Under the pieces are notes generated by a model. That model had not been told where the DNA came from, ran no database searches, and saw nothing but the letters and a program-made list of their open reading frames with translations. From Candidatus Falkowbacteria bacterium (GTDB lineage Bacteria; Patescibacteriota; Patescibacteriia; Patescibacteriales; WJLG01), in NCBI GenBank assembly GCA_963747695.1, contig CAVVFV010000012.1, positions 26,659 through 90,658 on the forward strand: a stretch of 64,000 bases of DNA, given 5' to 3'. Below, one piece after another: positions 8,731 through 64,000 of this stretch (positions are counted from its first letter, which is position 1; each line of letters starts with the position of its first letter). The translations under genes were made by a program, and so were the position numbers.

Positions 8731-9007
8731 TTCGATATACCATACTACATACTGCATACTACATCGATGCTCTTGACGAATTTTTTATATATGTTATTAT
8801 TGAATCAATCAAATAAAGCCATAGACAGTAGGCACAAACATAAGACCTACCGAGGCAAAAACATAGCTTAATCAATAAGCTTTTTGCAGTCTGTGGTTTC
8901 GGCCAGAGATTTTTTGTTTATAATGACAAATTACAAATTAGGAATTACAAATTTAGAAGATAAAATAATTTGTAATCCGTAATTTTTAATTTGTAATTGA
9001 TAAGAAT

Positions 9008-10189: not shown

Positions 10190-10443
10190 TATAGCGCGCA
10201 TTGGAAAATTTTGGATCAGACGCGCAGCGTGGAAACCGTGCAAAATTGCGTTGTCTGAGGAGGCGCCGCGCCGACGAGTATAGCAATTTTGCTAGGTTTC
10301 ATAGCGGAGCGTCCCAAAATTTGTCCAGCGCGCAGTTTTTTGCGCCACTTTTTTTAAAAAAAGTGGCAAAATACAGAATTAATAATGTTGGGAATGTACC
10401 CACCCGCCTCGCCGGGCTCGGCACCACTCCCGAGAGGGGATCC
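10190..10443 (+). ncRNA. Candidate structured ncRNA / complex repeat element, copy 1 (~255 nt; TATAAA-like box upstream, GC hairpin at 3' end)
   Basis: Homologous to 54220-54485 with compensatory substitutions in two helices; the 90-aa ORF across it is not conserved in copy 2. Confidence 0.4.
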
Positions 10444-14462: not shown

Positions 14463-14589
14463 TTTGTCATCCTGAGGCCCCTGGCCGAAGGATCTGATCC
14501 TTCCCGTGTAAAAAAAAGTTTGTTTTTAAGATAAATTTTGTGCGTCCTTGGAAGGAGCAGATCCTTCGCGCGGCGCTCAGGATGACAAA
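14463..14589. repeat. Repeat family K locus 1 (TTTGTCATCCTGAG...GAAGGATC / GATCCTTC...CTCAGGATGACAAA)
   Basis: Inverted arms at 14463-14494 and 14560-14589; relatives at 19925-20070 and 63091-63142. Confidence 0.8.
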
Positions 14590-16360: not shown

Positions 16361-16491
16361 AATGCTAATTAGTTATAATGCTAATTTTCGAATGATGCGA
16401 ATTTCGCGAATTCCCCTCTTGGGAGGGGTGCCGAGCCCGGCGAGGCGTGGTGGGTCATTCGTAGATTCGCATCATTCGTGAAATTAGCATT
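16361..16491. repeat. Family-C-like palindromic element with nested GC-rich hairpin module (16412-16454) identical to the 3' module of the 10190/54220 elements in reverse orientation
   Basis: aatgctaatt...gatgcgaatttcgcgaat TCCCCTCTTGGGAGGGGTGCCGAGCCCGGCGAGGCGTGGTGGGT cattcgtagattcgcatcattcgtgaaattagcatt. Confidence 0.7.
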
Positions 16492-16500
16492 GGAATTTAT

Positions 16501-16995
16501 ATGAAAATATTTTCCGCCTTTGGTTTGGATATCAAGATTTTGATCGCTCAGCTGATCAATTTTGCGATCCTGCTTTTTATCTTGTGGAAATTCGCCTATA
16601 AGCCGATGTTCAAGATTTTGGACGACCGCAAGAAGAAGATCGAAACCGGCATTGAGAATGCCGCTAAGGCTGAAGAAAAATTAAGAGAGATCGGCGAAGA
16701 AGAAAAGAAGATTTTGGTCGAAGCGAAAAGAGGGGCGGCGAAAATTCTGGATGATGCCCGTTTGATGGCCGAAGAAAGCCGCAAGAAGAATATTGACAAG
16801 ACCAAAGAAGAGATCGGCCAGCTGATCAATCAGGAAAAAGAAAGTATGCGTCAGGAAAAAGCGGAAATTCTGAAAAGCATCAACCGCGAAGTCGCGGATT
16901 TGGTGGTGGCGACGGTGGAGAAAGTTATCAATGAGAAAATGACCGGCGCTAAGGATGAAGAATTGATCAAAAAGGCGATTGGCAAATTAAAATAA
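16501..16995 (+). CDS. atpF: F0F1 ATP synthase subunit b
   Basis: N-terminal TM helix then long charged coiled coil; position in operon. Confidence 0.8.
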   Translation: MKIFSAFGLDIKILIAQLINFAILLFILWKFAYKPMFKILDDRKKKIETGIENAAKAEEKLREIGEEEKKILVEAKRGAAKILDDARLMAEESRKKNIDKTKEEIGQLINQEKESMRQEKAEILKSINREVADLVVATVEKVINEKMTGAKDEELIKKAIGKLK

Positions 16996-17003
16996 TTTTT
17001 TTA

Positions 17004-17408
17004 TTGTCATTCCCGCGCAGGCGGGAATCCAGTAACCTTGTCATTCCCGCGAAGGCGGGAATCCAGAAAATATGAAGGAGGGGAAAAGTTATTACGTTTA
17101 TATTTTAGCCGGCAATAGAAACGGCACGCTTTACACGGGCATTACCAATAGTTTGATTAGAAGAATTCAAGAACATAAAACAAAATACTTTAAAGGTTTT
17201 ACGGAAAAATATGGAGTTGATAAGTTAGTGTATTATGAAATTTATGGCAGTCCGAACGATGCGATTCATCGGGAGAAATGTATTAAAAAATGGAATAGAG
17301 ATTGGAAATTAAATTTAATAGAAAAGAATAATCCAACTTGGAAAGATTTATCAGTAGATTTATATTAACGTTTTTAATCTGGATTCCCGCCTTCGCGGGA
17401 ATGACGAA
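17004..17408. mobile_element. TIR-bounded mini-element carrying a GIY-YIG nuclease gene, inserted between atpF and atpH
   Basis: Two direct copies of TTGTCATTCCCGCG(C/A)AGGCGGGAATCCAG at 17004-17031 and 17038-17066; perfect inverted copy CTGGATTCCCGCCTTCGCGGGAATGACGAA at 17379-17408. Confidence 0.6.
17072..17368 (+). CDS. GIY-YIG nuclease family protein (YhbQ/UPF0213-like, 98 aa)
   Basis: SYYVYIL..GTLYTGITNSLIRRIQEH GIY-YIG core; low GC. Confidence 0.8.
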   Translation: MKEGKSYYVYILAGNRNGTLYTGITNSLIRRIQEHKTKYFKGFTEKYGVDKLVYYEIYGSPNDAIHREKCIKKWNRDWKLNLIEKNNPTWKDLSVDLY

Positions 17409-17413
17409 CTGTT

Positions 17414-17815
17414 ATGAAGATAACCGCTAAACAATATGCTACCGTCTTGCTGGAAAGTTTGGAAGGCAAGAACGAAAAACAAGCTGGTGTTACTATCAAG
17501 AAGTTCGCCGATGTTTTGCGTGCCAATAATCATTTGTCATTGCTCGGTGGCATCATCAGATTTTTCAATGAAGCTTGGGATAAGAAGAATAATACCGTGG
17601 AAGCGGAAATTGTGACGGCCAGAGCGATTAGTAAAGAAGCGATTGCTGAATTGGAAAAATTCATCAAAGCTCGTGCCGGTAGCGATAAGGTTGAAATGTC
17701 AGAAAAGATCGATCCCAGTTTGTTAGGCGGAGTAGTTTTAAGATATGGCAACAAATCACTGGATTTGAGTTTAAAAACGAAATTAGCGGATTTGAAGAGG
17801 CAGATTGTAAATTAA
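17414..17815 (+). CDS. atpH: F0F1 ATP synthase subunit delta (short OSCP form)
   Basis: 133 aa; C-terminal LLGGVVLRYGNKSLDLSLKTKL delta signature; operon position. Confidence 0.75.
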   Translation: MKITAKQYATVLLESLEGKNEKQAGVTIKKFADVLRANNHLSLLGGIIRFFNEAWDKKNNTVEAEIVTARAISKEAIAELEKFIKARAGSDKVEMSEKIDPSLLGGVVLRYGNKSLDLSLKTKLADLKRQIVN

Positions 17816-19924: not shown

Positions 19925-20070
19925 TTTGTCATCCTGAGCGCCGCGCGAAGGATCTATTGTCCGAGAAGCTTTCAATTTATAGATAAAAAATTTTGATTGA
20001 ATAAAGTCGGCGTTCCTTCAATATAGATCCTTCGTCAGGGACTCCCTGGCCGGGCAGGCAGGATGACAAA
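19925..20070. repeat. Repeat family K locus 2
   Basis: tttgtcatcctgagcgccgcgcgaaggatc ... gatccttcgtcagggactccctggccgggcaggcaggatgacaaa. Confidence 0.8.
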
Positions 20071-25114: not shown

Positions 25115-25176
25115 TCGTAGGAACGCAATATTTTGCGTTCCCGTTCGCCAGAACGCAAAATATTGCGCTCCTACGA
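25115..25176. repeat. Repeat family A locus 2 (inverted pair)
   Basis: tcgtaggaacgcaatattttgcgttc ... gaacgcaaaatattgcgctcctacga. Confidence 0.8.
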
Positions 25177-28598: not shown

Positions 28599-28665
28599 GG
28601 TAGGAACGCAATACCTTGCGTTCTGATTCACGGCATTTATCGTAGGAACGCAATACCTTGCGTTC
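28599..28665. repeat. Repeat family A locus 3 (two direct units)
   Basis: ggtaggaacgcaataccttgcgttc ... cgtaggaacgcaataccttgcgttc. Confidence 0.8.
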
Positions 28666-28695
28666 TATCTTTGCAAGAATAATTCGAGAGTTAAT

Positions 28696-46387: not shown

Positions 46388-47683
46388 ATGTTTAAAAAAA
46401 TAATATTATTAAAATTGAAGTGGCTGGCTAAAATGATTTTAGCTAAATACAAGCCAAAAATAGTCGGCATTACCGGCAGCGTAGGAAAGACCAGCACCAA
46501 GGATGCGGTTTTTTGCGTGCTCAAAACCAAATTCCGCGTCCGGGCGAGCATTAAGAATTATAACAATGAATTCGGTTTGCCGTTGTCGGTGATCGGGTCT
46601 GATTCGCCCGGGAAAAATTTTTTCGGTTGGCTGGCGGTTTTTTGGCAAGCTTATTGGCTGATCCTTTTTTTCGCCAAGGATTATCCCGAAGTGTTGATTT
46701 TGGAAATGGGCGTCGATAAGGTCGGCGATATGGATTATCTGACCAGCATCGTCAAGTGCGATGTGGGGGTGATCACGGGGATCGGCGAAGCGCATTTGGA
46801 AGCTTTTGGTTCGGTTGATAAGATCCAACTGGAAAAAGGAAAGCTGTTGAAAAAATTGGCCAAGAATGGCTGGGCAATCCTCAATTTTGACGATGAGAAG
46901 ACTAAGGCGCTCGCCGCCGAAAGCAAAGTCCGGGTTTTGGGTTATGGATTCAATCCCGGCGCCGAAGTCAGCGGCAGTAATCTGCAATTCAAATTCGAAG
47001 AGTCGAGGAACTTGGATAATTTGCTCGGTCTGACTTTTAAAGTTAGTTATGAAGGTTCGATGGTTCCGGTGGTCTTACCCGAAGTCATCGGCGGCGGCGC
47101 AGTTTACGCGGCGCTGGCGGCGATCGCGGTCGGACTGACCTTCAAGATCAATCTGGTGGAGATTGCGGCGGCCTTGCAGAAATTCGTTTCACCCAAAGGT
47201 CGAATGAAATTGATCGACGGGATCAAGCATACTTTATTGATTGACGATTCTTATAATTCTTCGCCGCAATCTTCGCTCGCGGCGATTGATTTCATCAAGC
47301 GGATCGAAACCGACCAGCCCTTCCGCAAGATCGCCGTTATGGGCGATATGCTGGAATTAGGTACTTACTCTGAAGCCGGACATCGCGAAGTCGGCCGTGC
47401 CGTAGCTGTTGCCAAATTCGATTTGCTCGTCACGGTAGGCGAGCGGGCGAGAGAGATTAGCCATGGCGCCAAGGCGGCCGGGTTGGCTGATGATCAAATA
47501 TTCAGTTTTTCTCATAACGCCGAAGCCGGTTTGTTCGTCCAGGATCGTTTAAAAGCCGGCGACCTGGTCTTGATCAAAGGATCGCAAGGCGCCCGGATGG
47601 AACAGGTCGTCAAGGAACTGATGGCAAATCCGCTCGAGGCCGGCATTCTGCTGGTTCGCCAGGGAGCCGAGTGGAGCGCGTAG
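46388..47683 (+). CDS. murF: UDP-N-acetylmuramoyl-tripeptide--D-alanyl-D-alanine ligase
   Basis: Mur ligase P-loop GITGSVGKTSTKD; Mur ligase central/C-terminal domains. Confidence 0.85.
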   Translation: MFKKIILLKLKWLAKMILAKYKPKIVGITGSVGKTSTKDAVFCVLKTKFRVRASIKNYNNEFGLPLSVIGSDSPGKNFFGWLAVFWQAYWLILFFAKDYPEVLILEMGVDKVGDMDYLTSIVKCDVGVITGIGEAHLEAFGSVDKIQLEKGKLLKKLAKNGWAILNFDDEKTKALAAESKVRVLGYGFNPGAEVSGSNLQFKFEESRNLDNLLGLTFKVSYEGSMVPVVLPEVIGGGAVYAALAAIAVGLTFKINLVEIAAALQKFVSPKGRMKLIDGIKHTLLIDDSYNSSPQSSLAAIDFIKRIETDQPFRKIAVMGDMLELGTYSEAGHREVGRAVAVAKFDLLVTVGERAREISHGAKAAGLADDQIFSFSHNAEAGLFVQDRLKAGDLVLIKGSQGARMEQVVKELMANPLEAGILLVRQGAEWSA

Positions 47684-47743
47684 GAACGCAATATTTTGCG
47701 TTCAAAATAAATCGCAGGAACGCAAGATATTGCGTTCCTACAG
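47678..47743. repeat. Repeat family A locus 4; murF stop codon TAG is part of the repeat
   Basis: gcgtaggaacgcaatattttgcgttc ... gcaggaacgcaagatattgcgttcctacag. Confidence 0.8.
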
Positions 47744-54219: not shown

Positions 54220-54485
54220 ATTGGGAAATTTCCGTAATCACGCAGCGTAGAAGCCGTGCAAAAGTTGCGTTGTCCGAAGCCCGCTTCATTATTATAAAAA
54301 TTATAAATAAAGGCGGGCAAGAATAGCAATTTTGCTAGGCTTCCTAGCGGAGTGATAGGAAATTTTCCCTGCGCGCAGTTTTTTGCGCTACTTTTTCTAA
54401 AAAAAGTAGCAAAGATTTTGAAATAATGTCAGGAATATACCCACCCCGCCTCGCCGGGCTCGGCACCCCTCCCAAGAGGGGATTT
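54220..54485 (+). ncRNA. Candidate structured ncRNA / complex repeat element, copy 2 (~265 nt; TATAAT at 54198-54203; 3' GC hairpin + T-run)
   Basis: Homolog of 10190-10443; CCCCTCccaaGAGGGGattttt 3' end abuts recR stop. Confidence 0.4.
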
Positions 54486-60232: not shown

Positions 60233-60290
60233 CGTAGGAACGCAATATTTTGCGTTCAAATCATTAGAACGCAAAGTATTGCGTTCCTAC
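60233..60290. repeat. Repeat family A locus 5 (inverted pair) immediately upstream of next gene
   Basis: cgtaggaacgcaatattttgcgttc ... gaacgcaaagtattgcgttcctac. Confidence 0.8.
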
Positions 60291-63016: not shown

Positions 63017-63090
63017 AAATTTTTCACCTCCTTTCTCCCACTCCTCTGGCGCTCCGAGGGACAGGCAAGGATAGGCGTAGGGACAGTTGC

Positions 63091-63142
63091 TTTTTTGTCA
63101 TCCCGAGTGCCGCGCGAGGGATCTATTTCCGAGGACAGGGAT
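63091..63142. repeat. Partial family K copy
   Basis: ttttttgtcatcccgagtgccgcgcgagggatctatttccgaggacagggat. Confidence 0.6.
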
Positions 63143-63212
63143 TATCTACGAAAAATCCTACCGTTGATTGCCGCAAATATTTTTGAGATTATTGTTTGAT
63201 AAATTGAAATAT

Positions 63213-64000
63213 ATGCCTAATCCTTCAGTAAGCATTGTCATTCCCACCAAAAACGAAGAAAAAAATATTGAGAACTGCCTGCAATCAATCCAGGCACAGA
63301 GTTATTCCAATCTTGAAATCATCGTTATTGATAATAATTCCGATGATAGAACCAAAGAAATCGTCTCTTCGTTTTGTCATTCTCGCGCCGGCGGCTTGCC
63401 TGCCGGTCAGGCAGGGAATCCAGGATGTCCGCCGGTAAGTTTTTTTAATTATGGTCCCGAGCGATCAGCGCAAAGGAATTACGGCCTGATTCAAAAGGCG
63501 AAAGGGGAGTATGCCATGTTCCTGGACGCCGATATGACTTTATCGCCCGATTTAATAAAATGTTGTGTGGAATTTATCACCAAGAGCAATTGCGTCGCCT
63601 TACATATCAGCGAAATAGTTTTAGGTAATAGTTTTTGGTCACGAGTCCGCCGGTTTGAAAGATCCTTTTACGATGGTACAGTGATTGACGGCGCCCGCTT
63701 TTTCCGGCGTGATGTTTTTGCTCAAGTTGGAGGATTTGATGAAACGATGAGCGGCCCGGAAGATTGGGATCTGGATAAGAAATTAAAACAAATCGGCACC
63801 ACCGGCCTGGTTCCGTCTAACAATAACCAAGCGGTAATCTATCACAACGAAGCTGAGTTTGATCTAAAAAAATATCTAAGCAAAAAAAGTTACTATGCCG
63901 CCAGTTTTGCCGCTTATATCGATAAATGGAGCAAGAATGATCCGGATGTGCGTAAACAATTTAGCTTCAGTTACCGTTATTTTGGCGTTTTTTGGGAAAA
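63213..64000 (+). CDS. Glycosyltransferase family 2 (3' end outside window; not in ORF track because no stop in window)
   Basis: Hand translation: MPNPSVSIVIPTKNEEKNIENCLQSIQAQSYSNLEIIVIDNNSDDRTKEIV...GEYAMFLDADM...; open to window end. Confidence 0.7.
   Translation, partial: MPNPSVSIVIPTKNEEKNIENCLQSIQAQSYSNLEIIVIDNNSDDRTKEIVSSFCHSRAGGLPAGQAGNPGCPPVSFFNYGPERSAQRNYGLIQKAKGEYAMFLDADMTLSPDLIKCCVEFITKSNCVALHISEIVLGNSFWSRVRRFERSFYDGTVIDGARFFRRDVFAQVGGFDETMSGPEDWDLDKKLKQIGTTGLVPSNNNQAVIYHNEAEFDLKKYLSKKSYYAASFAAYIDKWSKNDPDVRKQFSFSYRYFGVFWE
63374..63424 (+). repeat. Family-L-like element with internal palindromic expansion, embedded in frame within GT2 coding sequence
   Basis: ttgtcattctcgcgccggcggcttgcctgccggtcaggcagggaatccagg (51 bp = 17 codons, encodes CHSRAGGLPAGQAGNPG). 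Confidence 0.6.

Follow-up and report, generated by a model that had tools for sequence, protein, structure and literature searches.

This locus poses the question of what kind of repeat lies in frame within the coding sequence of an otherwise conserved glycosyltransferase, and how it came to be there and to be kept. It is found towards the end of a 64,000-nucleotide stretch of contig CAVVFV010000012.1 from a Candidatus Falkowbacteria bacterium (this whole stretch is referred to as the window), in which an initial annotation had pointed out 51 nt at 63374–63424 of a GT2 gene as the terminal repeat of a "family L" with an internal palindromic expansion, and had explained it as a miniature inverted-repeat transposable element (MITE) tolerated as an in-frame insertion. 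Judged by alignment with its orthologues, the GT2 segment is a genuine insertion, and by its motifs the repeat is CGTC-1 REP, also published as dRS3, NTS and SRM, and not a new family. The account that we consider very likely is that of a decayed CGTC-1/SRM hairpin repeat, most likely a pair, which was inserted and tolerated in a GT2 loop. The insert is, with good support, a known phenomenon in a new lineage and a new gene, for which "degenerate Ssn-type (CGTC-1) REP pair" is an apt label in place of "MITE".

The GT2 gene and its extra segment

The letters at 63374–63424 are identical to those quoted in the initial annotation, and the stop-free GT2 open reading frame (ORF) that it had translated by hand is borne out by translation and by a database protein: the ORF starts with ATG at 63213, runs on the plus strand to the window end at 64000 and continues past it, with the full-length protein of 295 residues (P0001) showing 100% identity over the window part. 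Membership in the GT2 family with a GT-A fold is indicated by the Pfam domain PF00535 (E 1.4e-25), by a conserved acidic DxD-type motif and by an AlphaFold2 model (mean predicted local distance difference test score, pLDDT, 88.8; predicted template modelling score, pTM, 0.86), with which Foldseek retrieves the GT-A enzymes RmlT, TarP and WrtF at E about 1e-13 to 1e-14. D105 and D107 are among the residues that are invariant in an alignment of 30 homologues (alignment A1), and all of these invariant residues are present in the window GT2. The gene belongs to a glycan-synthesis cluster with the order GT2, GT2, B12-binding radical SAM gene and then the insert-bearing GT2, and the same gene order is found on orthologous contigs. 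Proteins that share 90% identity or more with the AtpA of the source contig carry the name Patescibacteria group bacterium.

The insert (plus strand) has a G+C content of 66.7%, compared with 41% for the remaining ORF. It lies, as had been noted, between two conserved segments, IVIDNNSDDRTKEIV and NYGPERSAQRNYG, and an example of a peptide spanning it is AGGLPAGQAGNPGCPPVSFFNYGPER. The 17 codons it was said to comprise are found as CHSRAGGLPAGQAGNPG (codons 55–71, 63375–63425), but the 51-nt span itself starts at the third base of codon 54 and the net number of extra residues is higher, about 19. This follows from comparison with insert-less orthologues: in a codon alignment with L003, a syntenic orthologue of 72% identity in which the site is empty, the whole extra stretch spans 63375–63437 on the plus strand, with 21 codons in place of 2 and a net gain of about 19 residues (57 nt, codons 55–75). 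The residues CPPV (63426–63437), inside this stretch, may be a further decayed repeat fragment (TGTCCGCCGG).

Three concordant lines of evidence identify the segment as an insertion. In the alignment of 30 homologues, most read EIALKYTD--KVFDKGPERS where the window GT2 has EIVSSFCHSRAGGLPAGQAGNPGCPPVSFFNYGPERS. From the VVDN motif to GPERS there are 20 residues in 101 of 111 parseable close homologues, compared with 39 in the window GT2; the same 20-residue loop was found in 71/75 cases in a scan of reference genomes (one genome per species) and in 65/73 among 50%-identity representatives. As the query used to rank the 120 listed homologues contained the insert, that list could be slightly enriched in insert-bearing proteins, a bias from which the genome scan is free: its patterns consisted only of GPERSAQRN and FERSFY[DN]G and were hence blind to the insert. 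Together with the empty site of L003, the alignment with orthologues that had been proposed as a check thus speaks for an insertion, and related loops of similar length, which had been named as the observation that would count against it, are not the rule, with most orthologues being without the insert.

The insert is identical in three database proteins encoded on separate contigs (P0001, P0274 and P0275), and an independent contig (L005) matches without a difference over 983 nt; in this assembly-level comparison no heterogeneity was seen at the insert. The C-termini of the three proteins, which share one 90% cluster, do differ: P0001 ends GGAYLFTIK, P0275 ends GAAYLLKRND (like P0003) and P0274 diverges to other sequence after residue 186, which points either to recombination of GT2 genes between strains or to a chimeric assembly.

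The insert is also not private to the source genome. Two orthologues of 79% identity, P0002/L001 and P0003/L002, have an insert at the identical junction: in L001 it consists of TTGTCATTCC-TCGCTATC followed by an exact canonical unit of the repeat, and in L002 of the unit ends placed around a different nested palindrome, TCCCGTGTC-GG-GACACGGGA. The window, L001 and L002 share the junction codons TTT|TGT CAT ... AAT CCA, the downstream TGTCCGCC(R)GTAAG is common to the window and L001, and P0001–P0003 form a single clade in a neighbour-joining tree. Since these two orthologues have the insert at the same junction, it appears to be old and to have been remodelled later. In case of P0015/L004 (60% identity), one exact unit encodes CHSREGGNP, whilst its relative P0041 has the 3' half alone left (GNPASNH).

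The loop location given in the initial annotation agrees with the AlphaFold2 model, in which pLDDT falls below 50 solely at residues 58–70, between helix 47–58 and strand 75–79; the insert is predicted to form a disordered excursion in this helix-to-strand loop. Rossmann-like GT-A folds bind their substrates at the C-terminal edge of the parallel strands, and helix-to-strand connections lie at the opposite edge. The insert loop would hence lie across the sheet from the catalytic site. The GT2 with its insert is most likely functional, because the ORF is intact, the invariant residues are kept and the insert is confined, in the model, to the disordered loop. Five of the six frames of the canonical unit are open (LSFPRRRES, CHSREGGNP, VIPAKAGIQ, WIPAFAGMT and LDSRLRGND) and the sixth has a stop, with the observed intragenic copies making use of the CHS and VIP frames.

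Identity of the repeat and composition of the GT2 copy

Three canonical copies of TTGTCATTCCCGCG[A/C]AGGCGGGAATCCAG are present in the window at 17.0–17.4 kb, two on the plus and one on the minus strand: a head-to-tail pair at 17004–17032 and 17038–17066, upstream of an ssnA homologue, and an inverted copy downstream of it at 17379–17407 (minus strand). All three match the strict SRM search pattern (PMC11893778: HGTCWYN(0-2)YYVSBRHN(0-5)WNVSBRGN(0-2)RNCYNB) and are its only matches in the window, compared with 0.1 expected in dinucleotide-preserving shuffles. They agree with the NTS consensus CGTCATTCCCGCGMAVGCGGGAATCYRG with the exception of the first base, which is T for C in the two upstream copies. 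They likewise exhibit the anatomy of a CGTC-1 REP, ATTCCCGC / GMAG / GCGGGAAT / CCA, which is described as a CGTC or TGTC tag, an 8-bp stem beginning with A-T pairs, a 4-nt loop and a CCA tail (PMC3733652). The unit is a single hairpin of 28–29 nt with 8-bp arms; its tag is TGTC at 17005, 17039 and, in the GT2 copy, 63375, and CGTC at 17406 (minus strand). CGTC-1 REPs have been equated with Neisseria dRS3 and Rickettsia RPE-6 (PMC3733652, Di Nocera et al. 2013). What was termed "family L" does share its ends with other copies and is this known repeat. In an Rfam scan of the window at gathering thresholds, no family was reported over the repeats, the only match being a ribosomal protein L10 leader at 8801–8924 (RF00557, 49 bits; gathering score 44).

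The gene enclosed by the 17-kb copies (17072–17368, plus strand) encodes a 98-residue protein with a GIY-YIG nuclease domain as its sole domain (PF01541, E 3.2e-15). SsnA is a site-specific GIY-YIG single-strand DNA nuclease that binds and cuts NTS/SRM motifs (PMC11893778, Chenal et al. 2025), and the Ssn family is delimited there as single-domain GIY-YIG proteins of about 94–100 residues with homology to Neisseria SsnA at E < 1e-10. A tblastn search of two N. gonorrhoeae chromosomes returned a single matching locus, with 49.5% identity over 99% of the query (E 4e-25): a GIY-YIG ORF of 94 residues with six exact NTS copies within 400 bp either side. As this matches the NTS-ssnA-NTS arrangement and the SsnA protein size described in PMC11893778, we file the window ORF as a putative Ssn-family member on the basis of its length and its E value of 4e-25; it further conforms to the definition of an SRM that an ssnA homologue is encoded in the same genome, here with SRMs on both sides. 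An NCBIfam search of this ORF gave no match and a PDB sequence search gave only weak UPF0213 matches (1zg2, E 1.3e-4). The SRM-ssnA-SRM cassette (16996–17413) sits inside an ATP synthase operon, between the b subunit (16501–16995, PF00430) and the delta subunit (17414–17815, PF00213). The delta ORF is just 133 residues long, its match to the OSCP profile begins at position 48 of 172, and an in-frame stop lies within the repeat 10 nt upstream of the delta ATG; the cassette may have removed the N-terminal part of delta, or the lineage may have a short delta.

The link between these copies and the GT2 insert is not one of chance, since the composite pattern TTGTCATTCYCGCG-N(0-30)-GGGAATCCAG has three matches in the window (17004, 17038 and 63374) and 0.00 in 100 dinucleotide-preserving shuffles. 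The GT2 copy is, by its composition, a compound derivative of the canonical unit: it still has the tag, the CCA tail and the outer bases of the arms and departs from the CGTC-1 stem and loop, with C changed to T in the 5' arm and an extra A in the 3' arm, whereas the canonical unit fits the SRM pattern at the same site in the orthologues L001 and L004. The palindrome reported in the initial annotation as an internal expansion is present (CCTGCC-GGTCA-GGCAGG), but the interior is better described as a degenerate second tandem unit with a deletion: the insert aligns with the tandem pair 17004–17066 with a single 12-nt gap, at a score of 48 compared with 34.6 ± 3.9 for shuffled interiors (p = 0.003). 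In this alignment, alongside which a MAFFT alignment (A2) was used, the remnant of unit 1 (TTGTCATTCTCGCGCCGGCGG, 63374–63394, plus strand) agrees with the SRM at 17004 in 19 of its 21 opening positions, and the remnant of unit 2 (CTTGCCTGCCGGTCAGGCAGGGAATCCAG, 63395–63423, plus strand) contains the palindrome and an intact 3' end, GGGAATCCAG. At the same place L001 has a partial unit followed by a full canonical unit, and more than half of the published intragenic REP inserts are dimers or groups encoding 20–30 residues (PMC3733652). That the GT2 interior is the remnant of a second head-to-tail unit with a 12-nt deletion is therefore a reading that we hold with slightly better than even confidence. 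That a second small palindromic element had become nested in the interior was also considered for the window copy; this found no support, and a dimer with a deletion fits better. Nested palindromes do seem real in L002, as given above, and in L015 (ACACCC-GTAA-GGGTG).

Origin, retention and conservation of the insert

In the account that we favour, a head-to-tail pair of units would have entered the helix-to-strand surface loop of GT2 in the ancestor of a small Patescibacteria-like clade. It could have been retained because the unit is open in most frames, the net length is a multiple of three and the loop would lie away from the catalytic site, so that retention would be a matter of neutrality in a permissive loop; partial duplications and deletions that preserved the frame throughout would then have remodelled the interior, with the two ends kept. 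As for the spread of the repeat, the most plausible route, albeit a speculative one, would be one in which the intermediates are single-stranded DNA and SsnA nicks beside the hairpin, on the model of REP/RAYT and IS200/IS605 systems, an analogy that is raised but not demonstrated in PMC11893778. For the P0001–P0003 clade we regard one ancestral insertion followed by remodelling as reasonably probable.

Several observations weigh against parts of this account. What PMC11893778 reports for SsnA is cleavage and an effect on transformation only, with no link to the mobility of the repeat, and the gonococcal ORF is taken as SsnA from its 94-residue length and its NTS flanks, with no annotated name. 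No target-site duplication or shared 5' target motif was seen at the junctions inspected by eye; in the window, L001, L002, L004 and L042 no direct repeat was found there, although old junctions may have decayed. The GT2 copy lies outside the strict SRM pattern, with an interior of 21–24 nt where at most 5 are allowed; taken as a simple hairpin, it would have a stem with a single G.T pair and a single bulge, and the local RNA fold of 63360–63440 is no more stable than that of shuffled sequences (z = -1.05). Finally, the interiors of the three insert-bearing orthologues (window, L001 and L002) are mutually unalignable, so that a single event with later remodelling is our interpretation of them, and the perfect conservation of their ends is compatible with repeated insertion or gene conversion as well.

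This conservation of the repeat ends goes beyond the routine. Outside the insert, the three insert-bearing genes share 76% DNA identity, and 52–56% at third codon positions, yet TTTTGTCATTC and GGGAATCCAG are 100% identical in the window, L001 and L002. A similar situation is found in a second helix-to-strand loop of this GT2 family, in which an SRM is used in another frame by three Moranbacteria-like orthologues (L023, L026 and L042; peptides VIPVEAGIQ, VIPAEAGIQ and VIPAQAGIQ): 23–26 of 27 nt are identical among genes of 65–74% identity with 40–49% at third positions, and the differences in L023 include one change per arm, such that the stem pairing is kept. The gene around the repeat is far less well conserved than the repeat ends, for whose conservation a disordered loop offers no obvious reason at the protein level; selection for the hairpin in the DNA, homogenisation by gene conversion from copies elsewhere in the genome and repeated re-insertion remain as candidates.

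The last of these corresponds to the alternative that survives best, namely that the loop is a hot spot for recurrent, independent and recent insertions, with the window copy then not being an old remodelled insert. The contrast between unalignable interiors and identical ends in genes with such low third-position identity is what this reading would explain, and independent hits on the loop have certainly occurred: it contains hairpins of at least four sequence families, including GTCATCCCGAGTGAAGCCGAGAGATCT in L008, TGTCATCCCGACCGAAGTGGAAGGATCC in L009 and L015 and CCCCTCCTTGGATAAGGAGGGG in L006, as well as composites of 79 residues in P0088 and about 15 residues in P0096. Since the hairpin-bearing proteins fall into at least four separate clades of the neighbour-joining tree, the loop has been hit repeatedly. 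For the window copy itself, however, the shared junction codons, the downstream sequence common with L001 and the single clade formed by the three genes speak against recurrence, as does the lack of a conserved target motif at the 5' junctions of the inspected copies. We thus rank a single ancestral insertion above recurrent insertion, which is unlikely for this copy.

The loops of this family contain further observations of this kind. When compared with its relatives, the GT2 of L042 (2501–3433; Candidatus Moraniibacteriota metagenome-assembled genome (MAG), JAPLXF010000063.1) shows short in-frame insertions at five separate places: ARGFTQLNL, VIPAQAGIQ (which is an exact SRM), ACPVASDSSATG, DNFQSDGIKAKI and LVPSDDSG. 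L015, from a MAG labelled uncultured Gammaproteobacteria (CAYITZ010000042.1), has two adjacent GT2 paralogues with hairpin inserts in the same loop as in the window; one of them has a 30-residue array with three SRM-like starts, its nested palindrome being located in the 3' arm of the last unit. The taxonomic label of L015 looks doubtful given its Patescibacteria-like content. In L023 (3330–3800; Candidatus Moranbacteria GW2011_GWC2_37_8), a second, out-of-frame copy of the last ~45 codons (KKQFSLYYRFLGVFIEKGKWKKMIMHPLLTFGMYFLRGLVGIKFLMR) lies downstream of the GT2 stop and looks like a duplicated 3' end.

A second alternative, which we consider improbable, is that the repeat within the gene persists because it acts at the DNA or RNA level, be it as an SsnA binding or cleavage site, as a recombination boundary in a surface-glycan cluster or as an mRNA hairpin. 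The conservation of the repeat ends far above neutral expectation argues for it, together with the paired arm change of the second-loop SRM and the report that, in Neisseria, NTS copies are grouped around variable genes and influence transformation (PMC11893778). Conversely, the window copy has a disrupted stem, falls outside the SRM pattern and has no unusually stable fold, most orthologues are without an insert, and gene conversion from the many genomic copies would yield the same conservation without function. A broader conjecture, to which we give only a low probability, is that intragenic Ssn-type hairpins in Patescibacteria are actively maintained, by hairpin selection or gene conversion, with certain GT2 loops as recurrent landing sites; if true, such repeats would supply new surface loops in proteins of reduced genomes and working nuclease or recombination sites in a cell-surface glycan locus. 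Genome-wide data on the conservation of embedded repeats could separate functional maintenance from concerted evolution.

A classical MITE, that is a non-autonomous derivative of an insertion sequence (IS) on whose terminal inverted repeats a transposase acts with target-site duplication, followed by tolerance of the insert, appears very improbable. The unit is a repeated palindrome, copies of which bracket a small gene at 17.0–17.4 kb in inverted orientation, in the manner of IS ends, and gene-free inverted pairs of a related hairpin 65–70 nt apart at 14.5 and 20.0 kb resemble miniature elements; a Y1 transposase gene (PF01797) is also found about 10 kb upstream of an orthologous GT2 on another contig, with no linkage to the repeats. 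Against this, a unit of 28–29 nt with 8-bp arms and a compound of 51–57 nt compare poorly with the 70–300 bp and 15–30-bp terminal inverted repeats of MITEs (PMC3733652), no duplication is evident at the inspected junctions, and the sole repeat-enclosed gene encodes an Ssn-family GIY-YIG nuclease and no transposase, in a window whose ORFs were not systematically screened for transposases. From the initial proposal, the in-frame repeat in an otherwise conserved GT2 hence stands, whilst its designation as a MITE does not. A native lineage-specific loop with chance resemblance to the repeat, a pseudogene or an assembly artefact is scarcely credible: longer loops without a recognisable repeat do exist in P0037 and L029, but the composite pattern is absent from shuffles, the canonical unit occupies the same site in orthologues from independent samples, and the ORF is intact, with conserved catalytic residues, a confident fold and an identical insert on three contigs.

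Comparison with known systems places the insert among several described ones. Rickettsia palindromic repeats lying in frame in functional genes were described in 2000 (Ogata et al. 2000/2002, as summarised in PMC10969869 and PMC3733652), in-frame insertion was extended in 2013 to GTAG and CGTC REPs of several phyla (PMC3733652), and the nuclease partner of CGTC-1/NTS hairpins was characterised in 2025 (PMC11893778). With the Rickettsia repeats (RPE), as these summaries present them, the GT2 insert has in common that palindromic repeats lie in frame in functional genes at fold-compatible positions; judged from the model and the alignments, the insert is likewise in frame at a structurally permissive position of a probably functional gene, which is a functional likeness. 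RPE-6 and RPE-4 are considered to be CGTC-1 and CGTC-4 REPs (PMC3733652), a likeness that is drawn here from description and not from Rickettsia sequences. RPE-1, by contrast, is summarised as about 150 bp with a conserved peptide of 35–50 residues, unlike the short unit and compound found here. Within the CGTC-1/NTS/SRM family, the canonical window copies are near-identical to the Neisseria hairpin and flank a GIY-YIG gene, and in-frame intragenic CGTC REPs, often as dimers encoding 20–30 residues, have already been described (PMC3733652); the differences are that the host here is Patescibacteria-like, a lineage named in neither PMC3733652 nor PMC11893778, that the GT2 copy is a degenerate compound outside the SRM pattern, and that the published intragenic cases lie mostly in DNA replication and repair genes and not in a glycosyltransferase. 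GTAG REP/REPIN-RAYT systems are similar in that short hairpins, often paired, flank one dedicated single-copy gene and a single-stranded DNA mechanism is suspected, but they have another tag and stem and their partner is an IS200/IS605-like Y1 transposase instead of a GIY-YIG nuclease. Bacterial MITEs (Correia/NEMIS, ERIC, RUP and Nezha) share with the insert that they are small non-coding repeats sometimes found in genes as in-frame fusions; their sizes, terminal inverted repeats, target-site duplications and IS transposases were not seen for the GT2 repeat. Literature searches on such repeats in the candidate phyla radiation (CPR)/Patescibacteria yielded nothing relevant.

Thus, our findings extend both in-frame REP/RPE insertion and the pairing of Ssn nuclease and hairpin to a Patescibacteria-like genome and to a gene of glycan synthesis, with a hairpin almost identical to that of Neisseria despite the very large phylogenetic distance. 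Of wider reach are the conservation of embedded repeats well above that of their host genes and the recurrent use of the same loops. For annotation, the peptides CHSREGGNP, VIPAxAGIQ, SFPRRRES, WIPAFAGMT and DSRLRGND mark repeat-derived loops and not conserved protein motifs.

Other repeats of the window and the GT2 spacer

Between the radical SAM gene and the GT2 there is a spacer (63017–63212) that contains a hairpin of a related family at 63097–63123 on the plus strand (GTCATCCCGAGTGCCGCGCGAGGGATC; GTCATCCCGAG..CGAGGGATC), shortly before the start of the GT2 gene. On orthologous contigs, small genes of various kinds occupy this spacer, namely RhuM (L001), PNP_UDP_1 (L003) or a 23S_rRNA_IVP four-helix-bundle gene (L007), which gives it the look of a variable slot.

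Intergenic repeats are unusually abundant in the window. The related hairpins near the atp genes form two intergenic, gene-free inverted pairs of one family (GTCATCCTGAGCGCCGCGCGAAGGATC; GTCATCCTGAG..GAAGGATC) with arms 65–70 nt apart, at 14466–14586 and 19928–20067; the right copy of the second pair (20026–20067) has an expanded G+C-rich interior, like the GT2 copy. A G+C-rich repeat of 47–49 nt (AATTCCCCTCTTGGGAGGGGTGCCGAGCCCGGCGAGGCGTGGTGGGT) occurs in mixed orientation at 10392–10440, 16409–16460 and 54439–54485, with 86–96% complementarity between copies; a relative of it is the CCCCTCC..GGAGGGG hairpin, which codes for the PSLDKEGLG-type loops of P0042 and P0007. A 28-nt hairpin, CGTAGGAACGCAATATTTTGCGTTC, is present in nine copies, mostly as adjacent inverted pairs between genes (800–856, 25116–25173, 28599–28668, 47679–47740 and 60233–60289). 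The window further contains several A+T-rich repeat families with an 8-nt periodicity, ACTAATTAACTAAT, TATTGTCATATTGCTATATTG and GCGAATACTACGAAT.

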